From Patescibacteria group bacterium (GTDB lineage Bacteria > Patescibacteriota > Patescibacteriia > Magasanikbacterales > GWA2-37-8): 64,000 nt of DNA. Where the stretch lies: positions 150,540 through 214,539 of the forward strand of contig SCQK01000007.1 of NCBI GenBank assembly GCA_004321885.1, in the 5' to 3' direction. Positions 17,201-54,385 of this stretch are shown here, piece after piece (positions within the stretch are counted from its first letter, which is position 1; every line of letters starts with the position of its first letter). A model generated the notes under the pieces. That model worked only from the letters and a program-made list of their open reading frames with translations. It made no database searches and had not been told where the DNA came from. Both the position numbers and the translations under genes were made by a program.

Positions 17201-18576
17201 ACTTCCAAGAGGCCTACAATTACATAATCTCCCTGGCCAATATTCCGCGCAAAGAATACATGGCCGACCCCAAACATTGCCCCTGGTACTTAAAACGGTT
17301 GAAGTTTTTTTTGCGTATTTTGGGAAATCCGGAGAAAAAAATACCCCACATCATACACGTTACCGGCACCAGCGGCAAGGGTTCGGTCTGCCTGATGTTG
17401 GACTCCATTCTGCGTGAAGCGGCCCGCCACCGCGCCAAAAATTTTGGTGTGGTGGGCACGCTCACATCGCCTCACGCCTCGGCCATTATGGAGCGCTGGG
17501 AAGTAAACGGCCGGCCAATGCCTAAAAAAGAATTCGCGGCGCTGGTAGAAAAAATCAAGCCCAAACTGGACCAGTATATGCGCAAAACGCCGTATGACAT
17601 GCTCGCCTACGGCGAACTGGCCACGGCTATGGCGCTTTACTATTTCGCCAAAAAAAAAATAGAATGGGCCGTGCTGGAAGTGGGCTGCGGCGGACGCTAT
17701 GATTCCACCAATGTAATCCCGCGCAAAGATGTGGCCGTGATAACTAATATCGGCCTTGATCATACGCAAACACTCGGCAATACCAAAGAAAAAATCGCCT
17801 ATGAAAAAGCCGGCATTATCAAACGCGGATGCCAGGTGTTCACGATGGAAACAAACAAAAAAATTCTGCGCGTGATAGAAAAAGAATGCCAAAAAAATCA
17901 CGCCCCGCTTAAAATTGTCTACCCCTTAGGCTGGCTCCATAGTTCCGCCAAAGGCGGACTGTGGAGCCAACGAATGCACTCTGGCTCCACAGCCCTTTGG
18001 GACTATGGAGCCAGCCGCCTCCCGGTTCTCGGCGCCCATCAACAAAAAAACGCGGCCCTCGCGGCCGCGGTGGCGCGTTCAATCGGCATCTCCGAAAAAG
18101 CAATCACGCGCGGCCTGGCCAAAGTAAAATTGCCAATCAGAATGGAAGTCGTTTCGCGCAAGCCCATAGTCATCTTAGACGGCGCGCACAACAAGGACAA
18201 AATGCAAACAACAGTGGAAGCAATCTCCTCCCCCTTTATAAGGGGGAGGCGTGGTGGGGGTAGGGGTAACATCCACCTCATCCTCGGCTTTGCCGACAAT
18301 AAGGACTACCCGGCCATGCTCAAACAGCTCGCGGCGCTAAAACCAACCACCGTCGCCTGCACCCGCTTCAGCCACAATTTCTTCCGCAAGGCCGCGGACC
18401 CCAAAATCCTGGCGGCCAAAATAAAAAAACTGCTTCCCCGCGCCAAAACCGAAATTTTTTTGGATGTTTTAGACGGCTTCAGCTGGAGCAAAAAACAAGC
18501 CGCGCCCAGCGACATTATCCTCTGCACCGGCTCCATATTCCTAAGCGGCGAATTGCGTCTCAAAATTATCAGGTGA
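17197..18576 (+). CDS. Mur-ligase family protein, folylpolyglutamate synthase (FolC)-like
   Basis: HVTGTSGKGSV P-loop, Mur-ligase middle and C-terminal domains; two in-frame repeat insertions. Confidence 0.6.
   Translation: MNFQEAYNYIISLANIPRKEYMADPKHCPWYLKRLKFFLRILGNPEKKIPHIIHVTGTSGKGSVCLMLDSILREAARHRAKNFGVVGTLTSPHASAIMERWEVNGRPMPKKEFAALVEKIKPKLDQYMRKTPYDMLAYGELATAMALYYFAKKKIEWAVLEVGCGGRYDSTNVIPRKDVAVITNIGLDHTQTLGNTKEKIAYEKAGIIKRGCQVFTMETNKKILRVIEKECQKNHAPLKIVYPLGWLHSSAKGGLWSQRMHSGSTALWDYGASRLPVLGAHQQKNAALAAAVARSIGISEKAITRGLAKVKLPIRMEVVSRKPIVILDGAHNKDKMQTTVEAISSPFIRGRRGGGRGNIHLILGFADNKDYPAMLKQLAALKPTTVACTRFSHNFFRKAADPKILAAKIKKLLPRAKTEIFLDVLDGFSWSKKQAAPSDIILCTGSIFLSGELRLKIIR
17929..18016. 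repeat. two tandem GGCTCCAYAG...CTRTGGAGCC hairpins inserted in frame in the folC-like gene
   Basis: Translated GWLHSSAKGGLWSQRMHSGSTALWDYGAS; same family as 2078-2185. Confidence 0.75.
18225..18266. repeat. CCCTCC-loop-GGAGGG hairpin element inside the folC-like gene (translated PFIRGRRGGGRGN)
   Basis: ctcctccccctttataagggggaggcgtggtgggggtagggg. Confidence 0.75.
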
Positions 18577-18601
18577 TAACCGCATATTGATAACCGCATA
18601 T
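18574..18601 (+). promoter_or_regulatory. perfect tandem 14-bp direct repeat TGATAACCGCATAT x2 abutting the topA -35
   Basis: Candidate regulator binding site; overlaps the folC-like stop codon. Confidence 0.4.
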
Positions 18602-18630
18602 TTGACTAAACGCGATTTTTGCTTTATTCT
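18602..18630 (+). promoter_or_regulatory. promoter TTGACT-17-TATTCT for topA
   Basis: Spacing 17; lies between the direct repeat and the SD-sequestering hairpin. Confidence 0.45.
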
Positions 18631-18647
18631 TTATTAAATGACCATTA

Positions 18648-18682
18648 CCCCCTCCTCGCCTCCCCCTTCAAAAGGGGAAGAG
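18648..18682 (+). promoter_or_regulatory. CCCTCC/GGAGGG hairpin element in the topA 5' UTR; its 3' half supplies the SD
   Basis: ccccctcctcgcctcccccttcaaaaggggaagag then 8 nt then ATG 18691. Confidence 0.55.
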
Positions 18683-18690
18683 AAATAATT

Positions 18691-20910
18691 ATGTCCACTC
18701 TCGTCATCGTGGAATCGCCCACCAAGGCAAAAACCATTTCCAAATTTCTCGGCAAAGACTACACAGTGAAGTCGTCTTTCGGGCATCTGCGCGATTTGCC
18801 CAAAAGCAAACTGGGCGTGGATACGGAACACAACTTTGAACCGCACTACATCGTGAGCCGCGCCAAGACCAAAATCGCCAAGGAACTGAAATCAGCGGCC
18901 AAAAAATGCGATGAAGTGCTATTCGCCACTGATGAAGACCGCGAGGGCGAGGCCATTTCCTGGCACCTGGCCTTTATTTTAGACATAGACCCGGAAGACG
19001 CCAAGCGCATTGTTTTTCATGAGATAACCAAAACAGCCATCACCCACGCCCTGCAAAATCCCCGCCCCCTGGACATGAAGATGGTGCACGCCCAGCAGGC
19101 CCGCCGCGTGCTGGACCGCCTGGTCGGCTACGAACTCTCGCCTTTCCTGTGGCGCAAAGTGGCGCGCGGGCTGTCGGCCGGACGGGTGCAATCCGTGGCC
19201 GTGCGCCTGATCTGCGAACGCGAACGCGAAATCCAGGCCTTCAAATCCGAAGAATACTGGACCCTGGAAGGAACTTTTATAGCGCCCGAAAAAGCCGGGG
19301 AACCAAAAGAATTTTCCGCCAAACTTTTTTCCATGCCGGGCAAAAAGCTGGAAAAACTTGACCTCAAAAACAAAGAACAAATTGACAAAATTTTATCCGA
19401 CTTAAAAGACGCGCGCTACGCCGTCGCCGGCGTGGAAGAAAAAAAAATAAAGCGCGTTCCCCCGCCCCCGTTCACCACTTCCGCGCTCCAGCAGGAAGCG
19501 CATCACCGGCTGGGATTTTCGGCCAAGCAGACAATGATGCTGGCCCAGCAATTATACGAGGGCGTGGAACTGACCGGCGAGGGCGCGGCCGGTCTTATCA
19601 CCTACATGAGAACCGACTCGGTAAACCTGTCGGAAAAATTTTTGGACGACGCCAAAAATTATGTGCAAAAAACTTTTGGCAGCCAATATGCCCTAACGGC
19701 TCCGCGAGTCTTTCGCAACAAAAGCAAAAACGCGCAGGAAGCGCACGAATCAATCCGCCCCACCGAAGCCGGCCGCGCGCCCGACCAGCTGAAAGACCAT
19801 TTGGAAAAAAATCAATTCAGGCTTTACGATTTAATCTGGCGCCGCGCCCTGGCCACGCAAATGGCCGCGGCCGAGCTCAAAGCCACGGCCATAGACATTG
19901 CCTGTGACAAAAATTATGATTTCAAAGCCAACGGCCAGCAAATTATTTTTGACGGCTTTTTGCAATTGTATCCGGACAAATCAAAAGAAAACTATTTGCC
20001 GCGCCTGAAAAAAGACGACGAAGTAAGTTGCAAAGAATTAAAACCCGAACAGCACTTCACCGAGCCGCCGGCGCGCTACAACGACGCCACGCTCGTGAAA
20101 ACCCTGGAAGATTACGGCATCGGCCGGCCTTCCACCTACGCCCCCACCATCGCCACCATAGAAGACCGCGGCTACATTGAACGCGACGACAAAAAACGGC
20201 TGGCGCCCAAAGAAATCGCTTTTTTGGTAAACGATTTGCTGGTCAAACATTTCCCTCATGTCGTTGATTTCAAATTCACGGCCGAAATAGAAGACAGCCT
20301 GGACCAAATCGCGCGCGGCCAAAAACAGTGGCAGCCGGTGGTGGCGGATTTCTACGGGCCCTTTGAAAAAAATCTGCGCCAAAAAGACCAGGAACTGAAA
20401 AAAAGCGACATCGCGCAGGAAAAAACAGACGAGGTATGCGAAAAATGCGGGTCGCCCATGCTCATCAAAATGGGGCGCTTCGGCAAATTTATGGCCTGCT
20501 CCAATTTCCCGGAATGCAAAAACACCAAAAATCTAAACGGCGGCAAAAGCGCCGAGCCAGAGCCCACCGACGAGATATGCGAAAAATGCGGGTCGCCCAT
20601 GCTAAAACGTCAGGGCCGCTATGGCCCCTTCCTGGGCTGTTCCAAATATCCGGCCTGCAAAAATATCAAAAATATTGACGTAAAAATAAACCTTAAATGC
20701 CCAAAGTGCGGCGCGGGCGACGTGGTGGCCAAGCGCAGCAAGCGCGGCAAAACTTTTTACGGCTGTAACCGCTACCCGGACTGCGATTTCGCCCTGTGGG
20801 ATAAACCGACGGGCGAATTGTGCCCTGACTGCGGCAAGCCCCTGGTGTTCGGCAAAGAAAAAACCAGATGCTCAAACAAAGAATGCTCATACGAAAAAAA
20901 TCCCGCTTAA
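18691..20910 (+). CDS. topA: DNA topoisomerase I
   Basis: TOPRIM N-terminus (MSTLVIVESPTKAKT), Tyr domain, several C-terminal C4 zinc ribbons (CEKCGSPM repeated). Confidence 0.9.
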   Translation: MSTLVIVESPTKAKTISKFLGKDYTVKSSFGHLRDLPKSKLGVDTEHNFEPHYIVSRAKTKIAKELKSAAKKCDEVLFATDEDREGEAISWHLAFILDIDPEDAKRIVFHEITKTAITHALQNPRPLDMKMVHAQQARRVLDRLVGYELSPFLWRKVARGLSAGRVQSVAVRLICEREREIQAFKSEEYWTLEGTFIAPEKAGEPKEFSAKLFSMPGKKLEKLDLKNKEQIDKILSDLKDARYAVAGVEEKKIKRVPPPPFTTSALQQEAHHRLGFSAKQTMMLAQQLYEGVELTGEGAAGLITYMRTDSVNLSEKFLDDAKNYVQKTFGSQYALTAPRVFRNKSKNAQEAHESIRPTEAGRAPDQLKDHLEKNQFRLYDLIWRRALATQMAAAELKATAIDIACDKNYDFKANGQQIIFDGFLQLYPDKSKENYLPRLKKDDEVSCKELKPEQHFTEPPARYNDATLVKTLEDYGIGRPSTYAPTIATIEDRGYIERDDKKRLAPKEIAFLVNDLLVKHFPHVVDFKFTAEIEDSLDQIARGQKQWQPVVADFYGPFEKNLRQKDQELKKSDIAQEKTDEVCEKCGSPMLIKMGRFGKFMACSNFPECKNTKNLNGGKSAEPEPTDEICEKCGSPMLKRQGRYGPFLGCSKYPACKNIKNIDVKINLKCPKCGAGDVVAKRSKRGKTFYGCNRYPDCDFALWDKPTGELCPDCGKPLVFGKEKTRCSNKECSYEKNPA

Positions 20911-20926
20911 AACGGGATTTTTGTTT
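20898..20926 (+). terminator. rho-independent terminator (stem aaatcccg/cgggattt, then T-run) overlapping the topA stop
   Basis: aaatcccgcttaaaacgggatttttgttt. Confidence 0.55.
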
Positions 20927-20939
20927 CCGCCCGCCGCAG

Positions 20940-20967
20940 TTGAAAAAAGAAGCGAAGCCTGTATAAT
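20940..20967 (+). promoter_or_regulatory. promoter TTGAAA-16-TATAAT; predicted start lands on the rel ATG (leaderless transcript)
   Basis: -10 ends 7 nt before ATG 20975. Confidence 0.5.
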
Positions 20968-20974
20968 GGAAGTT

Positions 20975-22477
20975 ATGCGCGAAATCATTCTCAAAAACGA
21001 CCCGGAACTCAAGGACCTCCTGGATGAACTAAAAAATTATTGCCGCAAAGACGACCTGATAATGGCTCGCCTGGTTTATGATTTCGCGGACAAGGCGCAT
21101 GAGGGGCAGATGCGCAAATCAGGCGTGCCGTACATAAAGCATTGTCTGGCCACGGCCTACATTTTGGCCAAAATGAAGATTGACATCGGCATTATTATCG
21201 CCGCTCTGCTTCACGACGTGCCCGAGGACACCCATGTCACGCTGGAAGAAGTGGAGAAAAATTTCGGCCATGACGTGGCCTCGCTGGTAAAAGGCGTCAC
21301 CAAATTGGGCAAGCTGAAATATCGCGGCGTGGAAAGATACATTGAGAACCTGCGCAAAATGTTCGTGGCCATGGCCGAAGACATCCGCGTAATGATTATA
21401 AAATTCGCGGACCGCATCAACAACCTGGCCACGCTCGACGCCCTGCCGCCCAAAAAACGCCACCGCATCGCTCTGGAAAGCCTGGAAATTTACGCCCCCA
21501 TTGCCAACCGCCTGGGTATGGGCGAATTCAAAAGTCTACTGGAGGATTTGTCTTTTCCGCATATCTATCCCAAAGAATATGAAAAAGTTTTTCAAGTCAG
21601 ACAAGATTACCTGGCCGGACAGCAGGCCTATTTGGACCGGGTGATGCAAATCGCGAGGGAAGAAATGACCGCCGCCGGCATCAATTGGAGCGACGTGCAC
21701 GGCCGCGAAAAAACCTTGTACAGTTTGTATAAAAAAATACTGAGCAAGGGCTGGGACAACGTGGACAAAGTGTACGACATCGTGGCCATCAGAATCATCG
21801 TGGGCGACGTAGGCGACTGCTACGCGGCCCTGGGCATTATCCACAAACTGTGGCGCCCGCTCAAAGGCAGAATAAAAGATTATATATCCCAGCCCAAGCC
21901 CAACGGCTACAAATCATTGCACACCACGGTTTTTTGCGCCGAGGGCAGAATCGTGGAATTTCAGATTCGCGACGCGGAAATGCACGGCGAGGCCGAGCAC
22001 GGCATCGCCGCCCACTGGCATTACGACGAACAGGGCGCTAAAATTCCGGCGCGCGACATCAACTGGGCCGTGGAGCTGGCTTCCATCCAAAAAAATATTT
22101 TGGAAAAAATTTCCGACCTCAACGAGCTGAAAGTGGACTTTTTCCGCAACCGCATTTTTGTTTTCACCCCCCAGGGCGACGTGATGGACCTGCCCGAAGA
22201 CGCCACGCCCATTGATTTCGCCTACAACATTCACACCGACGTGGGCAACCATTGCAACGGCGCCAAGGTCAATGACCAGATGGTCTCTCTGGATGCGCCC
22301 TTAAAAAGCGGGGACGTGGTGGAGATTATTATGGACAAAAACCGCAAAGGCCCCAGCCCGGACTGGCTGAAAACCGTAAAAACCCACTCAGCCAAATCGC
22401 GCATCAAATCCAATCTCAAACATAGCCGCTCGTCTTTGTGGCTGCAAATGATTTTGCCGAAGCCGAAGAAGAAGTGA
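20975..22477 (+). CDS. rel: RelA/SpoT-homolog (p)ppGpp synthetase/hydrolase (short RSH with HD, synthetase and TGS domains)
   Basis: HD motif, RelA_SpoT synthetase region, TGS domain (RIFVFTPQGDVMDLP). Confidence 0.8.
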   Translation: MREIILKNDPELKDLLDELKNYCRKDDLIMARLVYDFADKAHEGQMRKSGVPYIKHCLATAYILAKMKIDIGIIIAALLHDVPEDTHVTLEEVEKNFGHDVASLVKGVTKLGKLKYRGVERYIENLRKMFVAMAEDIRVMIIKFADRINNLATLDALPPKKRHRIALESLEIYAPIANRLGMGEFKSLLEDLSFPHIYPKEYEKVFQVRQDYLAGQQAYLDRVMQIAREEMTAAGINWSDVHGREKTLYSLYKKILSKGWDNVDKVYDIVAIRIIVGDVGDCYAALGIIHKLWRPLKGRIKDYISQPKPNGYKSLHTTVFCAEGRIVEFQIRDAEMHGEAEHGIAAHWHYDEQGAKIPARDINWAVELASIQKNILEKISDLNELKVDFFRNRIFVFTPQGDVMDLPEDATPIDFAYNIHTDVGNHCNGAKVNDQMVSLDAPLKSGDVVEIIMDKNRKGPSPDWLKTVKTHSAKSRIKSNLKHSRSSLWLQMILPKPKKK

Positions 22478-22479
22478 AT

Positions 22480-23328
22480 TTACGGCCCCTTGGTGATGCG
22501 CTTGATGAGGCGCGCTAATTCCTCCCGGGAATAAAAATCAATGTGAATAGCGCCGCGCTCTCCCCTTTTGGTGATGTTTACTCGCGTGCTTAAAATGCCG
22601 CGCAATTCGTCTTCCAAAAAAGATAAATTCGGGTCGCGCTTTTTTTTATTTAAGGTAACTTTGCTCGCTTCTCTTTCTGTTTCGGCAGAAGACATTTTCC
22701 CGGCCAGCATGGTGGCCAATGCCGCCATTTGTTTTTTGACATCGGGAAAAGCCAATAGGGCGCGCGCCTGAGCATAGCCTATCTGTTCTTTTATCAGGGC
22801 TTCTTTGGCTGGCTCGGGCAAATCCAGCAAACGGATGGTATTGGAAATCACGGGCCGGCTTTTGCCCACGCGCTTGCCAATGTCTTCGTGCGAAATGCCA
22901 AACTCTTTGTGCAGACGGCTATACGCGAAAGCCTTTTCTATGGGATTCAGGTCTTCGCGCTGGATGTTTTCTATCAAAGCCACTTCCAACTTTTGCTTGT
23001 CCGGCAATTCTTTAATAATAGCCGGCACCGTGGCCAGACGCAAAAGCTGGGCCGCGCGCAAGCGGCGCTCGCCGGCCACCAGCTCATAGCCGCCGTCGGC
23101 CTTTTCCGTAACCAACAGGGGCTGTAAAATGCCATGCTCTTTGATGGAATCAGCCAGCTCGCCCAGCTCTGGCTCGCTGAAATTTTTGCGCGGCTGATGC
23201 GGATTGGGCGCAATGGCATGAGCCGGAATCTGCCAAATTTTGCTTTGGTTTTCATTGCCGGCGCTTGGCTTGTTTTTTTTGGATGAAGTGGGCGTGATAA
23301 GCGCGCCCAAACCGCGACCTAATGACAT
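22480..23328 (-). CDS. parB: chromosome partitioning protein ParB/Spo0J
   Basis: GERRLRAA ParB box; HTH. Confidence 0.85.
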   Translation of the reverse strand: MSLGRGLGALITPTSSKKNKPSAGNENQSKIWQIPAHAIAPNPHQPRKNFSEPELGELADSIKEHGILQPLLVTEKADGGYELVAGERRLRAAQLLRLATVPAIIKELPDKQKLEVALIENIQREDLNPIEKAFAYSRLHKEFGISHEDIGKRVGKSRPVISNTIRLLDLPEPAKEALIKEQIGYAQARALLAFPDVKKQMAALATMLAGKMSSAETEREASKVTLNKKKRDPNLSFLEDELRGILSTRVNITKRGERGAIHIDFYSREELARLIKRITKGP

Positions 23329-23334
23329 AAAATG

Positions 23335-23375
23335 TACCCCCTACCTAACCTCCCCCTTATTAAGGGGGAGGACAT
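23335..23375. promoter_or_regulatory. CCCTCC/GGAGGG hairpin element between parA stop and parB start; provides AGGGGGT SD 7 nt before the parB ATG
   Basis: taccccctacctaacctcccccttattaagggggaggacat. Confidence 0.55.
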
Positions 23376-24139
23376 TATTCAAACGCTCCCAATAATTCCC
23401 TGGCCAGCCGCTCGTAGGCCTTGGCCGCTTTGCCGCCGTTGTCGTAATGAAAAATACTCTGCCCGAAACTGGGGGCCTCGGCCAAACGCACGGTGCGCGG
23501 AATCACGGACCGGAAAATATTATTGGGAAAAAATTTGTAAAGCTCGTTCATCACTTCGCCCGACAGGCTGTTGCGCGGGTCATACATGGTGAGCACGGCG
23601 CCGAGCACTTTCAGGTCCGGCTTCAAACTCTCGCGCACCAGGTCTATAGTTTTCAAGAGCTGGCCCAAACCTTCCAGGGCGTAATACTCGGCTTGCACCG
23701 GAATAAGCACGTGGGTGGCGGCAATGAGCCCGTTTAGGGTTAAAAGGCCAAGCGACGGCGGGCAGTCTATAATAATATAGTCGTAAGCGTGCGCCACTTC
23801 CGAGAGAGCATCAGCCAGTTTGTTCTCGCGCCCTTCCATATTTACCAGCTCCACGCTGGCGCCGGCTAAATCCGGCGTGGCCGGGGCCACGCGCAAACCG
23901 GCATGGCCAGTGTTGAGCACAATATCGTGCAGGCGGGCCTGGCCGGAAATGGTGTGATAAAGGCCTTTTTCAAGCTCTTGATGTTTTATGCCCAGTCCCG
24001 AAGTGGCATTGCCCTGCGGGTCCAAATCAACCAGAAGCACAAACTTGCCTTCTTCGGCCAAAGCCGCGGCCAGATTGATGGCCGTGGTGGTTTTCCCCAC
24101 TCCCCCTTTTTGATTCACGATGGAAATAATCTGCGGCAT
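23375..24139 (-). CDS. parA: chromosome partitioning ATPase ParA/Soj
   Basis: MPQIISIVNQKGGVGKTTTAINLAAALA deviant Walker A. Confidence 0.85.
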   Translation of the reverse strand: MPQIISIVNQKGGVGKTTTAINLAAALAEEGKFVLLVDLDPQGNATSGLGIKHQELEKGLYHTISGQARLHDIVLNTGHAGLRVAPATPDLAGASVELVNMEGRENKLADALSEVAHAYDYIIIDCPPSLGLLTLNGLIAATHVLIPVQAEYYALEGLGQLLKTIDLVRESLKPDLKVLGAVLTMYDPRNSLSGEVMNELYKFFPNNIFRSVIPRTVRLAEAPSFGQSIFHYDNGGKAAKAYERLARELLGAFE

Positions 24140-24148
24140 ACCAAAATT

Positions 24149-24176
24149 ATCATTCCAGCCCACGAGCTGGAATCCA
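24149..24176. promoter_or_regulatory. TCATTCCAGC-CCACGA-GCTGGAATCC palindrome 10-37 nt upstream of the parA start (repeat-family member, possible operator)
   Basis: atcattccagcccacgagctggaatcca. Confidence 0.45.
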
Positions 24177-24252
24177 TTTGTCAACAATAGTATATCATAA
24201 AAGCAAACGCGGATAAAGGGCTTCTACGTTTGTTTTTAATTTTACGTCAGGG

Positions 24253-24840
24253 CTACGCCCTTTTCTCAAACCGTTTTTGCGCGACGGACCAATCCAAAAC
24301 CCTAAAAAAAGCGGCGATATAATCGGCTCGTTTCGCGCCATAGTCAATCAGATAGGCGTGCTCAAAAACATCCAGGGGCAAGATGGGCAAAGCGCCGGCC
24401 AAATGCCCGATGTGGTGCTCGTTTATCCAGGCATTTGTTAATCGGTTTTCCACGGCGTCATAATAAAGAATGGTCCAGCCAATGCCGCGCATGGCCGCGG
24501 TGGCGCGAAAATCCGTTTCCCAGTTTTCATAAGAGCCAAAATCCTCAACCATTTTTTCGTGCAAAGGCGACATGGTGTCAAGCGGCGTGGAATTTTTTGA
24601 GAGTTGACCAAAATAATATTCATGCAAGCGCATGCCGTTAAACTCCCAGCCAAAGCGGCGCTTTAATTCGGCAAACCCGGGCGTATCTGTTTTACCCTCG
24701 CCCCTCATTTTTTCCAAAATATCCATGAGTTTGTTGGCATTGGCGACATACCCTTGATAAAGTGAGAAATGTGTTTGCAGGGCCCGGTCGCTAAAACCCT
24801 CCAAACCCAACAGGGCCTCGTAATTTTTCGCTTCGTACAT
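24253..24840 (-). CDS. sod: Fe/Mn superoxide dismutase
   Basis: SOD Fe/Mn N- and C-domains; DVFEHAYLIDYG metal-site motif. Confidence 0.85.
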   Translation of the reverse strand: MYEAKNYEALLGLEGFSDRALQTHFSLYQGYVANANKLMDILEKMRGEGKTDTPGFAELKRRFGWEFNGMRLHEYYFGQLSKNSTPLDTMSPLHEKMVEDFGSYENWETDFRATAAMRGIGWTILYYDAVENRLTNAWINEHHIGHLAGALPILPLDVFEHAYLIDYGAKRADYIAAFFRVLDWSVAQKRFEKRA

Positions 24841-25037: not shown

Positions 25038-25071
25038 AAAAAATCCCCCCGGCTTATTCGGGGGGATTTTT

Positions 25072-26295
25072 TTATTCTTTCTTTTCCGCCGCATCTGCTG
25101 TTTCTTGCGATTGGCCTTCAGGCTGAATTTCTTCGGCCGGCTTCGCTTCTTCGGCCTTGGCCGCCGTGGCTTCAGCCGAGGCAGGCTTTTCTTCCTTCTT
25201 CTCTTCAGCTTTTCGCGCGCTTTTGCCTTTCACTCCGGCCGCGCGCAGGCCCAGGCGGTGCTCCATCGGCTCCAGCGACACAATCTCAAATTCTTTGGTT
25301 TCGCCCACCTTAAATTTGTCGTTTATATTCGCGATGGACTCGTCGGCCAGCTCGGAGATATGGGCCAGGCCGTGAATTTCCTTGTCCAGCGCCACCATCA
25401 GACCAAACGGCTCCACTTTCAAGATTTTGCCGCTTACCTTATCGCCCATTTTGTATTTTTCTTTCACGCTCTTCCATGGGTCATCCACCAGGCGCTTGAT
25501 GGACAAATAAATTTTGGAACGGTCCAGCTGGATAATTTGCGCTTTGATTTTGTCGCCCACTTTCAAAATATCCTTGGGGTGGTCTATTCTCTGCCAGGCG
25601 ATTTCGGAAATGTGCACCAGACCTTCCAGGTCATTGCCAAACCTGACAAAAGCCCCGAAAGAAGTGAGGGCGCTCACCTCGCCTTCCACCAGGTCGCCGA
25701 TTTTATACGATTCCAGCACGGCTTTTTGCGCGTCTTCCCAAACCGCTTTTTCCGACACAATCAATTTTTCTTCTTTCTCGTCTGCGTCAATCACTTTTAT
25801 CTCCAGCTCTTTGTTTATCAGTTCGCGCAATTTTTCCAAAATACGGCCCTTGTCGCCGCCGGCTACGCGCGGATAATGTTCGGGGCTAAGCTGGGAAACA
25901 GGCATAAAACCGGCCAGGGCTCCCACCTGCATCATCAGACCGCCCTTGTTGGCCGACAGCGCTTTGCCTTTCACGGCCAGGCCCTCGTTCATCCATTTCT
26001 TCACGTTGTCCCAGGCGCGCTGATAGCCGGCCACGCGGAAAGACAATTCCATTTCGCCGTTTTCGTTTTCCAGTTCCATTACCGTGGCTTCCACTTCATC
26101 GCCCACTTTCAAATTGCCGTACTCGCGCGATTCGGCAAACAGCTCGCGGCCGCGCACCACGCCCACGGTGAGGCCCTGCACGTCCAGCTGAATCTGGCCT
26201 TTTTCCACCGAGATGATTTTGCCTTTAATGACATCGCCCGCTTTGGGGATGTTGGCCGTGTGCGCCATTACTAAATTCTTAAAGTCATCGGACAT
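25072..26295 (-). CDS. rpsA: 30S ribosomal protein S1 (four S1 domains plus KE-rich tail)
   Basis: Repeated S1 OB-fold motifs. Confidence 0.8.
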   Translation of the reverse strand: MSDDFKNLVMAHTANIPKAGDVIKGKIISVEKGQIQLDVQGLTVGVVRGRELFAESREYGNLKVGDEVEATVMELENENGEMELSFRVAGYQRAWDNVKKWMNEGLAVKGKALSANKGGLMMQVGALAGFMPVSQLSPEHYPRVAGGDKGRILEKLRELINKELEIKVIDADEKEEKLIVSEKAVWEDAQKAVLESYKIGDLVEGEVSALTSFGAFVRFGNDLEGLVHISEIAWQRIDHPKDILKVGDKIKAQIIQLDRSKIYLSIKRLVDDPWKSVKEKYKMGDKVSGKILKVEPFGLMVALDKEIHGLAHISELADESIANINDKFKVGETKEFEIVSLEPMEHRLGLRAAGVKGKSARKAEEKKEEKPASAEATAAKAEEAKPAEEIQPEGQSQETADAAEKKE

Positions 26296-27818: not shown

Positions 27819-29375
27819 TTAAAAATTTGTCAAAATATCTTTTATTAAAGGCACGATGATATTTTTTTGATAGAAGTACGCGTTGGTTGGTTTTTTGGTA
27901 ATAGGGAAGATTAAAGACGGCACCAACAATTCCTGACTCGCGTTGTCTTTATAAGTCCAAATCTTTACCAGCTCCACGCTCGGGGTGCCCAGTTCAATTT
28001 TGACTACGCGGGCATTCGGGCCCTGCTCGGCGGCGTAAAACTCCTGACGCCAGCCCCCGGCCTCGGCCAGTTTTTGCAAACGGCTCGCGTCTTTTTCCGC
28101 GGCATAGCCCGAACTTTCATATTGCTGGCTGGTCAAGTTGTACACATTTTGCACCGTCAGGCCGTGCGCGTTCACGGCCACACTTAAACCACTTTTGTAA
28201 CCAGACTCTTCATATATATTCTTGCCTTCCACTTTGAGCGGATAAATTACAGTGAGGGAATCGGGCGCGTAATATTCGGCCGTACCAGAATCTTTTACAG
28301 CCGCCACTCCGTAACCGATCAGCCAGTCCTTTTGTATTTCGGGCGGGCCGTAGCTGTCGGTCGGTATGCCGTAGTCCCGCAAAAATTTATCGGCCGCCGC
28401 GATTATTTTATCGTCGCCCGGCAGATCCGAAACCCGCAAGGGTTTGTAGTACTCCGGAGAAACCACCATATCGCTGGACCTTGTCCAATTGCTCCAATTC
28501 TGATTTATGGAAACCGAACTCTCATTCAAGTCAACATAGACCGAGTAGCCGCGGTCGCGATTCTCGCTAAAACTGATGTTTTGCACCTTGATGCCGGAAA
28601 ATTTGTTCCAATCAATGCCCAGCCGTGCGCCCGAAAGCAAGGAAGAAAGCTGGCCAAACGAAGCATCGCCGCCTTTGATTCTTTTCAGCACCTGCATCGT
28701 CCCGCTGTCATCCTGTCCACCATTGTCATCCTGAACTTGTTTCAGGATCTCCATTATCGGTTCGCCTTTATATGCATATTTATACACGTCATAAACCGGA
28801 TAGTCGGGCGCTATCGTCTTGCCGGGTTCGGCAATGCCTGTGGCAACACCGGCGCTGCCCCGGCCATACGCGGCCACGGGGGCCGAAGGGGCTGGCGAGC
28901 CCAGGGCAATCTCCCTCTTCTCCTGTTTTTGCGCAGGCGCGGGTGCGGCCGCGTCCGGGCCGGCCGTTGCACCAGCCGCGGCTTTTTCTTCTAACAGCAG
29001 ATTGCCAAACGCGTTGTCGGCCAGTTTGGTCACGCTCGTTTGCGCGTTCTTTAAATCGAACAATCCGGGCCTGATATTATTTTTCACAAAAGAAAAAACC
29101 AGCAAAACCGAAGCCGCTGCCCCGGCGCCGATAAAAAGCCAGGAGAGCGGCTGAAAGCGCCGGGCCGGACGCGCCCGGGCCAAACGCGCGCCAGCTTCCA
29201 GCTCGTTGGCTCGCGTCAGTAAACGCTCGCGTAAAGCCAAACGAAATTTTTCATCAAACTTCGTGTCCGGCCGAGACGCCAGCAGTTCGTTGATAATTTT
29301 TATCACTTCCTGTTCGCGCGAACGCAACTCCGGCTCCATCGCATACAAATCGTTTAATATTTTTTGAATATCCAT
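27819..29375 (-). CDS. putative anti-sigma factor (cytoplasmic N-domain, one TM, large extracytoplasmic domain)
   Basis: 22-nt overlap with the upstream ECF sigma gene; topology typical of anti-sigma factors; contains an in-frame GTCATCCTGAACTTGTTTCAGGATC element. Confidence 0.45.
   Translation of the reverse strand: MDIQKILNDLYAMEPELRSREQEVIKIINELLASRPDTKFDEKFRLALRERLLTRANELEAGARLARARPARRFQPLSWLFIGAGAAASVLLVFSFVKNNIRPGLFDLKNAQTSVTKLADNAFGNLLLEEKAAAGATAGPDAAAPAPAQKQEKREIALGSPAPSAPVAAYGRGSAGVATGIAEPGKTIAPDYPVYDVYKYAYKGEPIMEILKQVQDDNGGQDDSGTMQVLKRIKGGDASFGQLSSLLSGARLGIDWNKFSGIKVQNISFSENRDRGYSVYVDLNESSVSINQNWSNWTRSSDMVVSPEYYKPLRVSDLPGDDKIIAAADKFLRDYGIPTDSYGPPEIQKDWLIGYGVAAVKDSGTAEYYAPDSLTVIYPLKVEGKNIYEESGYKSGLSVAVNAHGLTVQNVYNLTSQQYESSGYAAEKDASRLQKLAEAGGWRQEFYAAEQGPNARVVKIELGTPSVELVKIWTYKDNASQELLVPSLIFPITKKPTNAYFYQKNIIVPLIKDILTNF
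28706..28749. repeat. GTCATCCTG...GTCATCCTGAACTTGTTTCAGGATC palindromic element in frame in the anti-sigma-like gene (translated [10 protein letters not shown])
   Basis: Identical 25-mers at 37280-37304 and 63646-63670. Confidence 0.75.
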
Positions 29376-32141: not shown

Positions 32142-35100
32142 ATGCAAGCAAAAATTGAACTGCCCAAGGCGCCAATCGGCGCTATCACTCCCGCGCCCAT
32201 CGTGGACGAGATGCGCAAATCATATCTGGAATACGCCATGAGCGTGATTGTTTCCCGCGCCCTGCCTGACGTGCGCGACGGCCTCAAACCGGTGCACCGC
32301 CGCATTTTGTACGCTATGTGGAACATGGGCCTGCGCCACAACGCCAAGTTCCGCAAATCGGCGCACGTGGTCGGCGAGGTGATGGCGAAATACCATCCGC
32401 ATGGCGACTCGGCAATCTATGATTCCATGGTGCGCATGGCGCAGGATTTTTCCATGGGCCACACGCTGGTGCACGGCCAAGGAAACTTTGGCTGTTTCAC
32501 AAAAGATACCAAAGTCAAATTAACTGATGGCCGTGGTTTGAATTTTGAAGATTTAATCAAAGAATACGAATCGGGAAAGAAAAATTTTACTTACTCCATA
32601 AACAATTCCGGTCTAATTTCCATTGCCGAAATAAAACATCCCAGATTAACCAAAAAATCCGCTGAAATAATGAAGGTGGTATTGGATAACGGCGAAGAAA
32701 TCAGATGTACCTTGAATCACCTGTTCATGTTAAGAAATGGAAGCTACAAGGAAGCAAAAGATTTACAAGCCGGTGAATCGCTGATGCCCTTGTATCAAAA
32801 AATTTCCGAAAAAACCGACAAGTTAAACCGCGAAGGATACATCTTAATCCACCAAAACAAAACCGGCGAATGGGTGCCGGCCCACCACTTGGCGGATAAT
32901 TTTAATCTGAATGAAAAAAAATATGCTATAACGCGCGGCAGAGTTCGTCACCATGTTGATTATAATAAATTAAATAATAACCCGGACAATATCATTCGCA
33001 TGCGCTGGGGCGAACACTGGAAAATTCACTACTCGCACGCGAAAGAAATGCATCAAAATAATGAGTACGTAAAAAAACTTGCCGATGGCAGAAAAAAATT
33101 CTGGGCCGATAATAAAAATAGGAAAAAATACGCGGAAAGAATTTCTGTCCGCAATATTAAGAATTGGAAAAATTCGGAATACCGCGAAAAAACGCGTCAA
33201 TTCCTTAGCGAAACAAACAAGGAGTATTTAAAGAACCATCCGGAAAAAATAGCTGAAATTAAAAAGACGGCTTCGGCCACTTTTAAAAAATTATGGTCAA
33301 TACCTTATTATAAAAACTTATTCCACGATAAGATCGTCGCCGCGAACAAAAAAAGAATATCCAACAATACTGGCAAGAAAAAATTCTTGACTATCTGCAA
33401 AGAGGCGTTAAATCGCTTTAAGACAATTAATGAACAATCATACGAGCATGCCCGAAAAAAAGTTTACCCATATGGACGCGCTACGATGTGGCAGACCGGC
33501 TTCAAAAAATACTTTGCTGAAAATTTGGATACACTGACGCAAGAAGCGGTAAAAAACCACAAGGTGACCAAAATTGAATTTTTGAATGAAAAAGAAGATG
33601 TGTTTGATATTACGATTGATAAGTGGCACAATTTCGCTTTGGCCTCCGGAATTTTTGTACATAACTCAATGGACGGAGACAACGCCGCCGCCTACCGCTA
33701 CACCGAAGCCAAATTGGAATCATTGGCCGAAGAAATACTCGCCGACATTGACAAGGAAACGGTAAACTTCGTCCCCAACTACGATGGCTCGCACAACGAA
33801 CCGACCGTCCTGCCGGCCAAGGTCCCCAACCTCTTGCTGAACGGCACAGTAGGTATTGCCGTGGGCATGGCCACTTCCATTCCCCCGCACAATCTGGGCG
33901 AACTCTGCGACGGCCTGATAAAACTGATTGACGACCCGGAAACCACGGTGGAAGAACTCTCGGAAATAATCAAGGGGCCGGACTTCCCCACCGGCGGCAT
34001 CATTTACAATAAAAAAGATATTTTGGCCGCCTATTCCACGGGTCGCGGCGGCATTGTCATACGCGCCAAAGCGGAAATACAGGAAAGCAAATCAGGCCAG
34101 TTCCAAATCATAGTGAGCGAAGTGCCTTACCAAATAAACAAAGCGGCGCTGATAGAAAAAATCGCCGAGCTGGTGCAGGAAAAAAAGATAGACGGCATCA
34201 AGGACCTGCGCGATGAAACCAACAAAGACGGCGTGCGCATCGTTATTGAACTAAAAAAAGATTCATATCCGAAAAAAGTTTTAAACCGCCTGTTCCAGCT
34301 CACCGAACTGCAGACCACTTTCCACACGAACATGCTCGCTCTGGTGGACGGCATCCAGCCGCGCGTTTTGAATCTCAAAAACGTCTTGGAAGAATTCATC
34401 AAACACCGCCAGGAAATAATCCGCCGGCGCACCGAGTTTGACTTAAACAAGGCCAAGGAGCGCGCCCATATTTTGGAAGGCCTGAAAATGGCGCTGGACA
34501 AAATTGACGCCGTGATAAAAACCATCCGCGCTTCCAAAGACAAGGACGAGGCTAAAAAGAACTTGATGTCCAAATTCAAATTCACCGACCGGCAGGCCGT
34601 GGCCATTTTGGAAATGAAACTGCAGCAGCTGGCCAATTTGGAAAGACAAAAAATTGAGGATGAATTGAAAGAGAAAAAACTGCTGATAAAAGAGCTGGAA
34701 TCAATACTGGCTTCCAAAACTAAAATTCTGCAAATAATCAAAAAAGACACGGCCGAGTTGAAGGCCAAATACGGCCGCGAACGCGGAACGCAAATAGTAA
34801 GCCACGGCGTGAAGGAATTCACCGTGGAGGACTTGGTGCCGAACGAACCCACGATTATAATGATTACCACCGACGGCTATATCAAGCGCCTGCCGCCGGA
34901 CACCTTCCGTCAGCAATCGCGCGGCGGTAAAGGCGTAATCGGCGTTACCACCAAAGAAGAAGACAGTGTGGAACACTTACAGGCAACCAACACGCACGAC
35001 AATATCTTGTTCTTCACCAACCGCGGACGCGTATTCCAGTTGATGGCCTATGATATACCGCAAGCCAGCCGCACGGCCAAGGGGCAGGCTCTAGTTAATT

Positions 35101-35780: not shown

Positions 35781-35826
35781 ATTTCGTATAAAAAAATCCC
35801 TCCGGAAATGCGGAGGGATTTTTTTG

Positions 35827-36975: not shown

Positions 36976-36990
36976 TACAAGCGTTTAATA

Positions 36991-37040
36991 CCCCTCCCAT
37001 GCCCCTCCCCTAAAAGGGGAGGGATGAAAAGTGGGGTTGC
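36991..37040 (+). promoter_or_regulatory. CCCTCC/GGAGGG double-hairpin element in the rpmF 5' UTR
   Basis: cccctcccatgcccctcccctaaaaggggagggatgaaaagtggggttgc. Confidence 0.55.
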
Positions 37041-37279: not shown

Positions 37280-37304
37280 GTCATCCTGAACTTGTTTCAG
37301 GATC
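37280..37304. repeat. GTCATCCTGAACTTGTTTCAGGATC element
   Basis: Identical to 28725-28749 and 63646-63670. Confidence 0.75.
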
Positions 37305-37317
37305 TCCATTTTATTCT

Positions 37318-41402: not shown

Positions 41403-41413
41403 TTTGGTAACTA

Positions 41414-41447
41414 AAACCTCCCGGCTTAGCCGGGAGGTTTTGTTTTT
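41414..41447. terminator. bidirectional rho-independent terminator (aaacctcccggc-ttag-ccgggaggttt then T7)
   Basis: Ends the micro-ORF (+) and the PHP gene (-). Confidence 0.7.
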
Positions 41448-42751
41448 TAGAATAATCGCGACTGGCCTCCGCCCATTTTTTCACGGTCGCCCAGGGCGTT
41501 CACTGTTCCGAACACGCCGTCGTAACCGGGCTTTACTTTCACCCGGCCAACGCGCGCGTTGGCGATGGCCAAAGCGATATTTTTATCCGAAGCGTATTTT
41601 TTTATCTCTTCCAAATCAGCGTCCAATAAAATATGAAATTCACTGCCGATATTTTTAATCAGATTTTCATACTCTAACGCCACTTTTTTGCCGGCCGTTC
41701 CCACGCCGAATACCGCCGCGATTATTTCCCGCAAAGGCACGACGTACTTGTGCGGAATAAATTTTTCCGCCGGGATATTTTCTTCTTCGCGGTCAGCCAA
41801 ATCATCTACGCGATGCAAAACACCGACTGTTAAATTTTTTTTGCATTTGGGGCAAATATTTTTTAATTTTTTTGTTTCTTTGGGCGCCAGGCAAACCTCG
41901 CACGCCGCGTGTCCGTCAAAATGATACTTGCCCTCTTCGGGAAAAAATTCTATGGTGTGCAAAAACTTTCTCTTGTCGCCTTCTTTTATTATCCGCGTGA
42001 TTTCGCCATAAGTAATTTCGTTTTCTTCCGCAAAAGCGAACGCATTGGCCTCGCGGCCGATTTTGTCCGGACTGTGCGCGTCGGAATTGGACACCAGGGT
42101 AATATTATCCAGCTTTGAAAGACGACGGTTCATTGCCGGGTCGCTGGAGAGTCCGGTTTCTATGGCGCGGATATGCGGCGTTAACTCTTCAAAGCACTCT
42201 GTCAGCGAATCATAGCCGGATTTGGAGCCGAAAACCGCGAACCAGGGAGTCCAGGCATGGGCCGGAATGAGTAAAAATCTTTCGTCAATTTCTAAAAGCA
42301 TTTGCAAAACGGCTTTGGCCGATAAACCCATTATCGGCCGGCCGTCGGATTTTAGGTTCACGCTCTTTTTTTCAAACTGCGCGTTCAATTTTTCCACCGC
42401 GGCGATATTGGGCGCCAAAATCACCAAATGCAAACGGCGGGTTTTGTCTTGGTGTTTGTAGATGCAGGAAATCTCGGTGGAGAGGATGAATTTAACCCCT
42501 CCTTGTATCCCTCCCCTATTAGGGGAGGGGCAAGGGGTGGGGTTTTTCAATTCATACAATCCGCTCTCTCCAATCTCGGACAAATTTTCTTTTATATGCC
42601 CCAGCCAGGCCGGATGCGTGAAATCGCCGGTCGCTACAATATCAACTCCCTTGCGCGCGCAAGCCGCGGCGATTTTTGGCAATTCCAAATCAGGCGAACA
42701 AGCGCGTGAGTATTTGGAATGAATGTGAAAGTCAAGAATTTGTTTGAGCAT
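41447..42751 (-). CDS. PHP-domain protein with C-terminal zinc finger, endonuclease Q-like
   Basis: LDFHIHSKYS PHP motif; GHAACEVC...CPKC; in-frame CCCTCC/GGAGGG element (PTPCPSPNRGGIQGGV). Confidence 0.5.
   Translation of the reverse strand: MLKQILDFHIHSKYSRACSPDLELPKIAAACARKGVDIVATGDFTHPAWLGHIKENLSEIGESGLYELKNPTPCPSPNRGGIQGGVKFILSTEISCIYKHQDKTRRLHLVILAPNIAAVEKLNAQFEKKSVNLKSDGRPIMGLSAKAVLQMLLEIDERFLLIPAHAWTPWFAVFGSKSGYDSLTECFEELTPHIRAIETGLSSDPAMNRRLSKLDNITLVSNSDAHSPDKIGREANAFAFAEENEITYGEITRIIKEGDKRKFLHTIEFFPEEGKYHFDGHAACEVCLAPKETKKLKNICPKCKKNLTVGVLHRVDDLADREEENIPAEKFIPHKYVVPLREIIAAVFGVGTAGKKVALEYENLIKNIGSEFHILLDADLEEIKKYASDKNIALAIANARVGRVKVKPGYDGVFGTVNALGDREKMGGGQSRLF
42496..42545. repeat. 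CCCTCC/GGAGGG hairpin element inserted in frame in the PHP gene
   Basis: cccctccttgtatccctcccctattaggggaggggcaaggggtgggg. Confidence 0.75.
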
Positions 42752-51532: not shown

Positions 51533-51561
51533 AGAACCACTAATTTACTTCACTAATCACA

Positions 51562-51873: not shown

Positions 51874-51874
51874 A

Positions 51875-52876: not shown

Positions 52877-52885
52877 ATTAAAATT

Positions 52886-52916
52886 GTCATTCCCGCGACG
52901 TACGTCGGGAGAATCC
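52886..52916. repeat. GTCATTCC-CGCGACGTACGTCGGGA-GAATCC element 10 nt upstream of the fba start
   Basis: Arms as in the other family members. Confidence 0.75.
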
Positions 52917-53030
52917 ATTATTTAAATTTACCTTTCGGTTATAATAAAAATAAAGGTCATATAGGTAAATATGATTATACTCGGCCGCGTATTCTAAAGT
53001 TTTAACTCTTTCATCCATATAAATACCCTA

Positions 53031-53063
53031 CCCTTTTTGTCCCTCCCCTAAGAGGGGAGGGAG
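53031..53063. repeat. CCCTCC/GGAGGG hairpin element overlapping the pfk 3' end (encodes the last 5 codons and stop)
   Basis: ccctttttgtccctcccctaagaggggagggag. Confidence 0.7.
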
Positions 53064-54289
53064 CTAACGACGGGTGCAGCCAGGCGATCGAGCGTGAAAA
53101 TATCGCCGACGAGCGGACGCGCATAGTTTATAAATTCTTGGGTCACCATGTTATCGCCGGCAATAAATTCATCGGGCATCTTTTTGGTTTTGCCGGCCAC
53201 ATCGCCCAAGGGCAATAATTTGTACTCTACAGCGTAATCGCCCACGCGGTTTATGGCCACCGATCCGTCCACGTTGTGCCAAACTGAGTACTGTACTGCT
53301 TTTTCGCCCACCTCGCGCGCTTCGTGCCTGTCTATTTCGCTGACACAACCCAAAAATGAGCGTTGTAAATATCCCAGGGTGTCGGCGCGTACCCGTTTGA
53401 TGCCTGTTTTGACCTTTACCAAACCAGCCAACATGTCTCCAAGGGCGCCCGAACCAGATAAGGTTACATTGCCGTGCGGGTCAACATCCAACCCTGGATT
53501 CCTGCTGGATTCCCCCGTACTTAGCCGGGGGAATGACATTGCCATCAAATTCCCTGCTTTGTCCGCGATCCCCTCAGAGACCGCCACCACGCATCGGCCA
53601 TATTTCTCGTAAACACTTTTCACGTCAACGCAAAATTTTTCCGCGTCAAAAGCGCGCTCGGGTAGATAAATCAAATGCGGTCCGTCATCGGGAAATTTCT
53701 TAGCCAAAACCGAAGCGGCTGTTAAAAAACCGGCATGCCGGCCCATCACCACCGCGATATACACGCCCGGCAAAGAACGGTTATCCAAATTCGCGCCGGC
53801 AAACGCGCTGGCCACATAACGTGCGGCCGAACCATAGCCCGGGCAGTGGTCGGTACCGACCAAATCATTGTCTATCGTTTTGGGGATATGAACCACGCGC
53901 AATTCGTAATTGGCTTTATTCGCCTCTTCGTTCACAATGCGGCAGGTCTCGGCCGAATCATTGCCGCCGATATAATAAAAATACCGTATGTCGTGTTTAC
54001 GCATCACCTCAAACATCTGGCGGCAATACTCGGCACCCGGCTTGTCGCGCGTGGAGCCCAAAGCCGCTCCAGGCGTGTCGGCCACGCGCTCCAGATTATG
54101 CGTAGTAGATTCGGTGAGGTCTAAAAAATTTTCTTTGATTATTCCCGACACTCCAAAACGGGCGCCGTATACTTTTGTTATTTCCGAAAATTTGCGCGCC
54201 TCCAAAACCACGCCGGCCAGGGACTGGTTTATCACCACGGTCGGCCCGCCCCCCTGGGCCACCAAAGCTTTACCGATTAGTTTGAACAT
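53048..54289 (-). CDS. pfk: 6-phosphofructokinase (PPi/ATP-dependent PFK-A family)
   Basis: GGGPTVVINQS, PFK fold; contains an in-frame palindromic element (MSFPRLSTGESSRNPG). Confidence 0.8.
   Translation of the reverse strand: MFKLIGKALVAQGGGPTVVINQSLAGVVLEARKFSEITKVYGARFGVSGIIKENFLDLTESTTHNLERVADTPGAALGSTRDKPGAEYCRQMFEVMRKHDIRYFYYIGGNDSAETCRIVNEEANKANYELRVVHIPKTIDNDLVGTDHCPGYGSAARYVASAFAGANLDNRSLPGVYIAVVMGRHAGFLTAASVLAKKFPDDGPHLIYLPERAFDAEKFCVDVKSVYEKYGRCVVAVSEGIADKAGNLMAMSFPRLSTGESSRNPGLDVDPHGNVTLSGSGALGDMLAGLVKVKTGIKRVRADTLGYLQRSFLGCVSEIDRHEAREVGEKAVQYSVWHNVDGSVAINRVGDYAVEYKLLPLGDVAGKTKKMPDEFIAGDNMVTQEFINYARPLVGDIFTLDRLAAPVVSSLPS
53496..53538. repeat. compound GGATTCCTGCT plus GGATTCCCCCGTACTTAGCCGGGGGAATGACA element in frame in pfk
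   Basis: Same element as 4293-4324. Confidence 0.8.
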
Positions 54290-54304
54290 AAATGCTTACC
54301 CCTC

Positions 54305-54385
54305 TCTCGCTCTCCCCTTATAAAGGGGAGAGAAACACTCCCTCCCCTTGCCCCTCCCCTAAAAGGGGAGGGATAAAGGGTGGGG
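54305..54385. promoter_or_regulatory. two tandem CYCTCCCCT/AGGGGAGRG hairpins between the HD-gene stop and the pfk start; supplies G-rich SD for pfk
   Basis: ctctccccttataaaggggagag...cccctccccttgcccctcccctaaaaggggaggg. Confidence 0.6.

Follow-up and report, generated by a model that had tools for sequence, protein, structure and literature searches.

Hairpin repeats resembling Shine-Dalgarno elements in a Patescibacteria genome are probably G/C-rich class II triplex motifs

The DNA considered here, called the window throughout, is a 64,000-nucleotide stretch of an uncultured Patescibacteria genome (GTDB order Magasanikbacterales; assembly GCA_004321885.1, contig SCQK01000007.1, positions 150,540 to 214,539 of the forward strand). 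Its genes include recG, a folC-like Mur-ligase gene, topA, parA and parB, rpmF, the endonuclease Q gene (endoQ) and pfk, and a short G+C-rich repeat recurs in the spacers between genes and inside open reading frames (ORFs). A sequence-only reading of this DNA had described the repeat as a two-part hairpin in which a C-rich tract pairs with a purine tract resembling a Shine-Dalgarno (SD) sequence. The analysis presented here indicates a three-block element, probably a G/C-rich class II intrastrand triplex motif (TM) of the kind known first as BoxC, then as PIT and then as TM or TM_ECO, together with the fold-back mechanism and the incidental effect on translation outlined below. The window thus presents a triplex-motif repeat in a phylum new for this class.

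All seven sites listed previously are real and hold eight hairpins; the consensus given by the earlier reader, with up to three mismatches allowed, has 3 matches in the window against 0.02 expected by chance. The count of seven missed a ninth copy, located in recG (7003-7059) and carrying a further hairpin nested in its loop. Seven hairpins are perfect and begin with the pyrimidine arm (18227-18249, 23349-23371, 37003-37023, 42509-42529, 53040-53062, 54310-54332 and 54352-54372), and one, at about 18660-18683, is imperfect and decayed. The loops, taken before for 4-nt AT loops, are in fact 3 nt long with A-T closing pairs, which makes them effectively 5 nt. The two-part description also overlooked a third block (RH), which follows the pyrimidine arm (Y) and the purine arm (R) at every copy; it may lie on either strand, and three copies have it on both. 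The third block is a mirror image of the purine arm in which G is kept and A is either kept or changed to T; the turn between the two measures 2-5 nt, or 7 nt in a single case. The three blocks share one strand and, with a loop of 3-5 nt, give an element 35-48 nt long. The copies are given below as Y / loop / R / turn / third block.

7003..7059, + strand (gene on -), copy in frame in recG: Y CCCTCCCCT; R GGGGAGGG; turn ACAGA; third block GGGTGGGGT; loop 1 enlarged by a hairpin nested in it, CCTGAACTTGTTTCAGG, from another repeat family
18227..18262, + strand, copy inside the FolC-like Mur-ligase ORF: CCTCCCCCTT / TAT / AAGGGGGAGG / CGT / GGTGGGGGTA; zero mismatches; peptide SSPFIRGRRGGGRGN
18646..18683, - strand, decayed copy in the folC-topA spacer: CTTCCCCTT / TTG / AAGGGGGAG / GCGAG / GAGGGGGTA
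23335..23371, - strand, copy filling the parA-parB spacer, sense orientation: CCTCCCCCTT / AAT / AAGGGGGAGG / TTAG / GTAGGGGGTA
36990..37037, double-sided copy between a FemAB gene (-) and rpmF (+): central hairpin CCCTCCCCT-AAA-AGGGGAGGG; - strand, good third block at 36990-36999 (TGGGAGGGGT); + strand, weak third block (AGTGGGGT)
42495..42543, double-sided copy in frame in endoQ: + strand, TCCCTCCCCT / ATT / AGGGGAGGGG / CAA / GGGGTGGGGT
53025..53062, - strand, copy at the pfk 3' end: TCCCTCCCCT / CTT / AGGGGAGGGA / CAAAA / AGGGTAGGGT
54297..54332, - strand, copy in the spacer from an HD gene to pfk, sense orientation: CTCTCCCCTT / TAT / AAGGGGAGAG / CGA / GAGAGGGGTA; zero mismatches
54339..54386, double-sided copy adjoining the preceding one: + strand, CCCCTCCCCT / AAA / AGGGGAGGGA / TAA / AGGGTGGGGT

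The copy at 54339..54386 is 92% identical over 38 nt to the one at 37000-37037, loops included, and since loops as well as stems are common to both, they are duplicates rather than convergent sequences. Relative to the genes, four copies are sense, two antisense and three double-sided, and orientation is mixed in relatives too. Intergenic DNA makes up 6.1% of the window and holds five to six of the nine copies, from which it follows that most coding insertions were presumably removed by selection.

The three-block layout was analysed with a finder for Y-loop-R-turn-RH arrangements (each block 8 nt or longer with no more than one mismatch). It gave 11 matches in the window, with every one of the eight hairpin loci represented, whereas 30 shuffles yielded none, and the third block of every copy found has one mismatch at most. 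The same finder recovers, as a positive control, E. coli K-12 TM_ECO #1 and #2 between hrpB and mrcB (164547-164631). The Y-R Watson-Crick stems are perfect and 9-10 bp long in seven copies, the one at 18646 being the decayed exception; folded as single-stranded DNA the hairpins reach -9.7 to -11 kcal/mol (-10.7 kcal/mol for the copy at 18227..18262) and leave the third block free. The order of blocks is strongly polar. Class II motifs (Y-R-RH) outnumber those of the opposite polarity, class I (RH-R-Y), by 11:1 in the window, 16:0 in 978 kb of metagenome loci selected by FolC, 199:3 in genome loci and 57:0 in viral loci, and across three sequence sets purine-first hairpins number 0, 0 and 3 versus 7, 18 and 216 that begin with the pyrimidine arm.

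The mirror relation was examined in 200 hairpins from the window and the fetched loci, with the third block aligned on G positions only. Facing an A of the purine arm, the third block had T in 140 cases, A in 90, G in 9 and C in 3; the turn measured 2-3 nt in 178 of the 200 hairpins, and perfect mirror matches numbered 142 versus 44 perfect direct repeats. The rule is kept across different arm sequences (purine arm > third block: GGGGGAGG>GGAGGGGG, GGGGAGAG>GAGAGGGG and GGAGAGGGG>GGGGTGAGG), and further arm types obey it as well (GGGGAAGG>GGATGGGG, GGGAGAGGGG>GGGGTGAGGG and GGGAAGGGGG>GGGGGTTAGG). The persistence of A or T opposite A through many variants and phyla provides comparative evidence for a constraint on the three-block fold.

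G/C-rich class II intrastrand triplex motifs were described by Holder et al. 2015 (PMC4666352). The repeat entered the literature as BoxC of E. coli, and Hoyne et al. 2000 (as cited in PMC4666352) found it again under the name of PIT elements; its E. coli consensus is CCCTCNCCC-N3-6-GGGNGAGGG-N3-GGGNGAGGG, and single-stranded TM_ECO forms a stable triplex in vitro according to circular dichroism (CD) and nuclear magnetic resonance (NMR) (PMC4666352). In the E. coli family neither orientation nor gene function nor distance to ORFs is biased, inverted pairs are frequent, and the loci of the family are more variable between strains (PMC4666352); promoter and terminator activity were absent in earlier work cited there. 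The window elements share the features that define the class. Y, R and RH lie consecutively on one strand at all eight hairpin loci and, with an expanded loop, in the recG copy; Y and R pair along 8 nt or more with no more than one mismatch and a loop of 1-6 nt, and RH runs antiparallel to R with the potential for G.G-C and A.A-T or T.A-T triplets. This architecture places the elements in the wider G/C-rich TM class, as far as sequence can assign them, and their block sequences set them apart from TM_ECO itself.

According to the mechanism that we favour, Y and R would form a hairpin of 9-10 bp whenever the G-rich strand becomes single-stranded, in replication, repair or a transcription bubble, and RH would then fold back antiparallel to R in the major groove through G.G-C and A/T.A-T triplets of the purine motif. 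The repeats would multiply and persist in the scarce spacers between genes and in permissive loops on protein surfaces, and any effect on the translation of topA, parB or pfk would be incidental and not the reason for the existence of the elements.

Several points weigh against this classification. The exact TM_ECO consensus does not occur in the window, where the block sequences differ from it. The triplex fold was demonstrated for E. coli TM_ECO oligonucleotides and the window elements are known from sequence alone; even for TM_ECO, the triplex gave no signal in duplex DNA nor in in vivo dimethyl sulphate (DMS) footprinting (PMC4666352), which leaves the biological relevance of the fold unproven. 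E. coli copies are always intergenic, whereas three to four window copies lie in ORFs: those in recG, folC and endoQ, and the one that extends across the pfk stop codon. Intergenic placement is, however, a property of the E. coli set and not of the motif definition. Many of the 200 hairpins are related copies of one family, so that their counts overstate independence, and the variety of arm types is the stronger argument for the mirror rule. Finally, target-site duplication, which together with terminal inverted repeats marks a MITE, is hardly apparent: the mean longest flank repeat is 3.34 versus 3.16 in controls, with element boundaries uncertain, and flank repeats of at least 6 nt number 11 against about 4.7 expected, a weak excess.

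A further counterpoint is that the purine arm and the third block together may supply the four G tracts of a G-quadruplex, in DNA or RNA, that competes with the hairpin. The pattern (G3+ N1-7)x4 is present in five of the nine copies, namely 36990(-), 42508(+), 53025(-), 54351(+) and recG, and the proteobacterial consensus GGGGAGGGTTGGGGTGGGGATGGGG has as many as five G tracts. A quadruplex requires neither mirror symmetry nor A or T opposite A, and the layout persists where the tracts are too few: the variants with two G tracts at 54297(-) and 23335(-), as well as the TM_ECO-like GAGAG types in the relatives L121, L122 and L138, keep the three-block mirror arrangement. The copy at 54297..54332 is unable to form a quadruplex because it has only two G tracts. 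For TM_ECO itself, NMR imino spectra indicated a triplex and not a quadruplex (PMC4666352). The two-tract variants led us to reject a pure G-quadruplex as a general explanation, and we consider quadruplex formation an improbable basis for these elements.

The resemblance to SD and anti-SD sequences arises because the blocks of the triplex motif are G-rich purine and C-rich pyrimidine tracts. It had led to the proposal that the elements are translational attenuators or RNA thermometers, in which the C-rich arm pairs with the purine arm at the ribosome-binding site and melting frees translation. Four copies do lie in 5' leaders, and the RNA hairpins are stable, with about 9-10 G-C-rich pairs. 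The leaders were folded as mRNA and compared with shuffles (z-score). The topA leader has a purine arm that stops 8 nt short of the ATG (18691) and is base-paired in the minimum free energy (MFE) fold, in agreement with the suggestion that the 3' half of the hairpin supplies the ribosome-binding site 6-9 nt before the start; the hairpin is a weak one of 6 bp, formed by the decayed copy, and no better than shuffles (z = -1.1). The same suggestion does not hold for the other three genes. The purine arm of the hairpin ends 20 nt upstream of the ATG in both parB and pfk, and the tract at SD distance is the third block, which ends 8 nt (parB) or 9 nt (pfk) before the ATG and is unpaired in the folds. 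For rpmF (ATG at 37053), the distances to the start from the end of the arm and from the last G tract are 29 and 16 nt, and nothing SD-like lies within 16 nt.

SD-led initiation leaves no sign in the window as a whole, because GGAG, GAGG or AGGA occurs at -18..-4 of 6 of the 46 genes without the element versus a background of 9%. The leaders are A/T-rich and devoid of SD motifs, and a gene for a multi-domain ribosomal protein S1 is located at 25072-26295; together, these features fit SD-independent initiation. The proposed tie to start codons fares no better, as the 60 nt upstream of start codons account for 41% of intergenic bases and closeness to starts is therefore expected for any intergenic repeat. 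The presence of four of six intergenic copies near a start (P ~0.19, binomial estimate) is not unusual, and other copies sit inside ORFs or at a 3' end, in both orientations. Sequestration of the SD gives no role to the third block, to the ORF-internal and 3'-end copies or to the mixed orientation. RNA thermometers are known only from 5' UTRs, occlude a functional SD and/or the AUG and rely on weak, mismatched stems. The window elements share with ROSE and fourU a 5' leader in which a GGAGG-like purine tract has a pyrimidine-rich strand as potential pairing partner, but their stems are perfect G-C-rich 9-10-mers, unlike those of known thermometers, and their positions vary to include ORFs and 3' ends. 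We conclude that SD occlusion is not the organising principle, and sequestration of this kind seems very unlikely to explain the elements. Sense-oriented copies may still supply a free SD-like tract to parB and pfk. A tempting regulatory story gives way to classification in a widespread repeat class first described about 30 years ago as BoxC.

Action at the RNA level could also take the form of punctuation similar to that of repetitive extragenic palindromic (REP) sequences, with a hairpin in polycistronic mRNA that blocks 3'-5' exonucleases or directs processing and so sets the levels of neighbouring cistrons such as parA/parB or HD/pfk/fba. Five copies lie between co-directional genes, and their RNA hairpins are strong, with the pfk leader folding at -57.8 kcal/mol (z = -3.7). 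Nevertheless, this explanation accounts for neither the mirror third block nor the A-to-T rule, and purine-motif triplexes do not form in RNA (PMC4666352). The mixed orientation relative to transcription does not suit it either, the ORF-internal copies speak against a dedicated role between cistrons, and a search of the window and 18 loci against Rfam at the gathering threshold matched no family at the elements. Punctuation of mRNA is thus improbable as the basis of the family, and the class II triplex motif is retained as the preferred interpretation.

The core hairpin is distributed far beyond Patescibacteria. An exact scan for CCCTCCCCT-N3-AGGGGAGGG, with one genome per species, found it at no fewer than 119 loci (at least 119) from many phyla. 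It is present in Proteobacteria, Chloroflexi and Bacteroidetes as well as on viral contigs, in most cases accompanied by the same third block, and the hosts among the matches listed are Xanthomonadales, Rhodocyclales, Burkholderiales, Geobacter relatives, Anaerolineae, Bacteroidetes and Alphaproteobacteria. Among the matches listed, the flank consensus is CCCTCCCCTTCAAGGGGAGGG-TT-GGG(G)TGGGGATGGGG and the third block adjoins the hairpin in 107 of 136 cases; on viral contigs it is adjacent in 28 of 42 hairpins. A crude analysis of the ORF context of these loci, at least 119 and mostly from high-GC genomes, gave no clear preference of orientation or position; about 40% of its 'in ORF' calls are probably artefacts and it is not relied on here. 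An apparently alphaproteobacterial and viral variant (L072, L081, L093, L112, L116, L201, L202, L212 and L219) has a separate G+C-rich hairpin (e.g., TCGCCGCCGAAGGCGGCG) in place of the 3-nt turn, followed by the third block GGGGTGGGG.

Within genes, the in-frame copies in FolC, EndoQ and RecG are insertions relative to homologues. The reading frames through the folC-like and endoQ copies, reported earlier, were confirmed, and so was the description of the pfk 3' end, where the final codons (SLPS) come from the Y block of the copy at 53025-53062 and translation stops at the TAG of its loop. The suggestion that the repeat is a portable insertion likewise stands. EndoQ (41447-42751, - strand) matches Pyrococcus EndoQ 5ZB8 (E = 8e-51), which has a 15-residue gap exactly at the window peptide KNPTPCPSPNRGGIQ. 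The loop has its minimal form in 55 of 120 Patescibacteria homologues, and many others carry unrelated insertions at the same place, some P/G-rich and TM-like and some derived from other repeat families. This surface loop, aligned to 42496-42543 of the window, is an insertion hotspot across the Patescibacteria homologues P0121-P0240, in which insertions from several different repeat families lengthen the segment by up to 48 residues. In RecG, additional residues mark the place of the element when the protein is compared with 1GM5, the RecG of T. maritima.

The nearest relatives of the FolC-like protein belong to Magasanikbacteria (~57% identity). The linker between its DGAHN and GFSxDK motifs has 33-38 residues in most fetched relatives. 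Relatives either have no element in it or hold differing variants, and a triplex motif lies in the linker in the window, L121, L129, L130 and L138. The arm variants differ among these copies and the orientation is opposite in L130, which indicates independent insertions at a permissive site. A different hairpin is nested in the triplex-motif loop of L129 (~9370-9440), similar to the recG case. One or two triplex motifs also stand directly upstream of folC in relatives (L138 9915-9988, L122 9803-9930 and L127 1531-1560), and where paired they are inverted with inward-facing third blocks, as in the TM_ECO pairs of E. coli; the window has no such spacer because the genes overlap there.

A more far-reaching interpretation is that the triplex-motif repeats of Patescibacteria are currently or recently mobile. 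They would insert independently and in either orientation into the same protein loops (the FolC linker and the EndoQ hairpin loop) and into each other's loops, and sense copies would place a free GGGGG or GAGGGG tract 8-9 nt before the starts of parB and pfk, acting as portable SD donors in an SD-poor genome. We put this forward tentatively, as a possibility that is on balance doubtful. If true, it would provide a first handle on the spread of BoxC/PIT elements, a question dating from the 1990s, and would mean that these elements reshape both proteins and leaders. A Pfam scan of about half of the window ORFs showed no transposase among the domains found, with no search aimed at a mobilising enzyme. 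The contig L001 was considered as a second strain for insertion polymorphism and rejected, being 100% identical to the window. It comes from an independent assembly of the same genome (aligned to window 18269-24637) and starts 7 nt after the motif at 18227-18262, which suggests that the repeat breaks short-read assemblies.

The entry of the motif into essential genes, in frame and at recurrent permissive loops, has a practical side: P/G-rich insertions from triplex motifs are to be expected in proteins of the candidate phyla radiation (CPR) by gene callers and protein aligners.

Other repeats and insertions accompany the triplex motifs in the window. A second family of small hairpins, GGATTCCCCCGTACTTAGTCGGGGGAATGACA, is found at 4292-4324, 11248-11280, 53506-53538, ~55070-55105 (-) and 63710-63742; its copy at 53506 is in frame inside pfk (peptide MSFPRLSTGESSR), and PPi-PFK 3HNO has a 13-residue gap there. 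A third family, GTCATCCTGAACTTGTTTCAGGATCTCCATT, occurs at 28725-28755, 37280-37310 and 63646-63676, with two copies 100% identical, and its core is also nested at ~7023-7039, in loop 1 of the recG triplex motif. Repeats of the GGAAATTGGAAATT type are translated in frame (FPISNFQ...) in the recG ORF (5870-6393) and in a FemAB-family ORF (36614-36685), and peptides of this type recur in the EndoQ loop elsewhere in Patescibacteria (e.g., P0142 and P0206). Hairpins flanked by A and T runs (AAAAAATCCCCCCGG...CCGGGGGGATTTTTTT) follow tRNA-Leu (25038-25073), gyrA (35790-35825) and endoQ (41410-41445); these differ from the triplex motifs and have the appearance of intrinsic terminators acting in both directions. 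The 23S rRNA gene (57075-63378, -) contains two group I introns (Rfam, 57411-57693 and 59542-59780) and has ORFs of 174-215 aa in its inserted stretches; the 5S gene is at 56856-56962. The product of gyrA (32142-35780, +; 1212 aa) carries an intein, with Pfam Intein_splicing at residues 134-508, within the topoisomerase domain.

Among known systems, intrinsic terminators were considered and rejected; the hairpins are followed by a G-rich third block, and only 42508(+) has a T5 run, on the strand antisense to the gene. The Betaproteobacterial repeat element (BRE; PMC3110155) was likewise set aside, being ~90 bp long, with none of the window motif strings in its supplementary text. A literature search with the literal motif strings found no bacterial paper. 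Rickettsia palindromic elements (RPEs) are ~100-150 bp long. To our knowledge, they occur in Rickettsia only, lack homopurine/homopyrimidine tracts of this kind and show no mirror-symmetric third block. The likeness to them lies in behaviour: RPEs are selfish palindromes that enter protein-coding genes in frame, at permissive positions on the protein surface, and the protein is not destroyed (Ogata et al. 2000, cited in PMC3184786). REPs and bacterial interspersed mosaic elements (BIMEs) resemble the window elements as short (20-40 bp), dispersed, G+C-rich extragenic hairpin repeats, often in inverted pairs. REPs have a conserved GTAG or CGTC tetranucleotide at one end and a link to the gene of a REP-associated tyrosine transposase (RAYT) (PMC3733652), and no GTAG or CGTC tag is found at the hairpin end in the window element sequences.

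The closest counterpart is the BoxC/PIT/TM_ECO family. The two sets share the Y-R-RH order on one strand, stems of 8-10 nt, a first loop of 3-6 nt, a turn of ~3 nt, which can be TTA in the window elements and in CPR relatives too, and the G.G-C and T/A.A-T symmetry. Both are dispersed, over-represented, free of orientation bias and patchy among relatives, and both sometimes form adjacent inverted pairs, with a gap of 15 nt in the L138 pair versus 16 nt between E. coli #1 and #2. The blocks differ, being CCCTCCCC/GGGGAGGG/GGGTGGGG or CCTCCCCC/GGGGGAGG/GGAGGGGG here and CCCTCNCCC/GGGNGAGGG/GGGNGAGGG in E. coli. Some copies have third blocks on both sides of the hairpin and some have a hairpin nested in loop 1, and their host is a Magasanikbacteria-like member of Patescibacteria in which ORFs also receive the motif. 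The density is about 9 loci per 64 kb in the window versus 23 per 4.6 Mb in E. coli K-12; the motif thrives in the ultra-small, A+T-leaning genomes of Patescibacteria, where it is far denser than in the species in which it was first noted.

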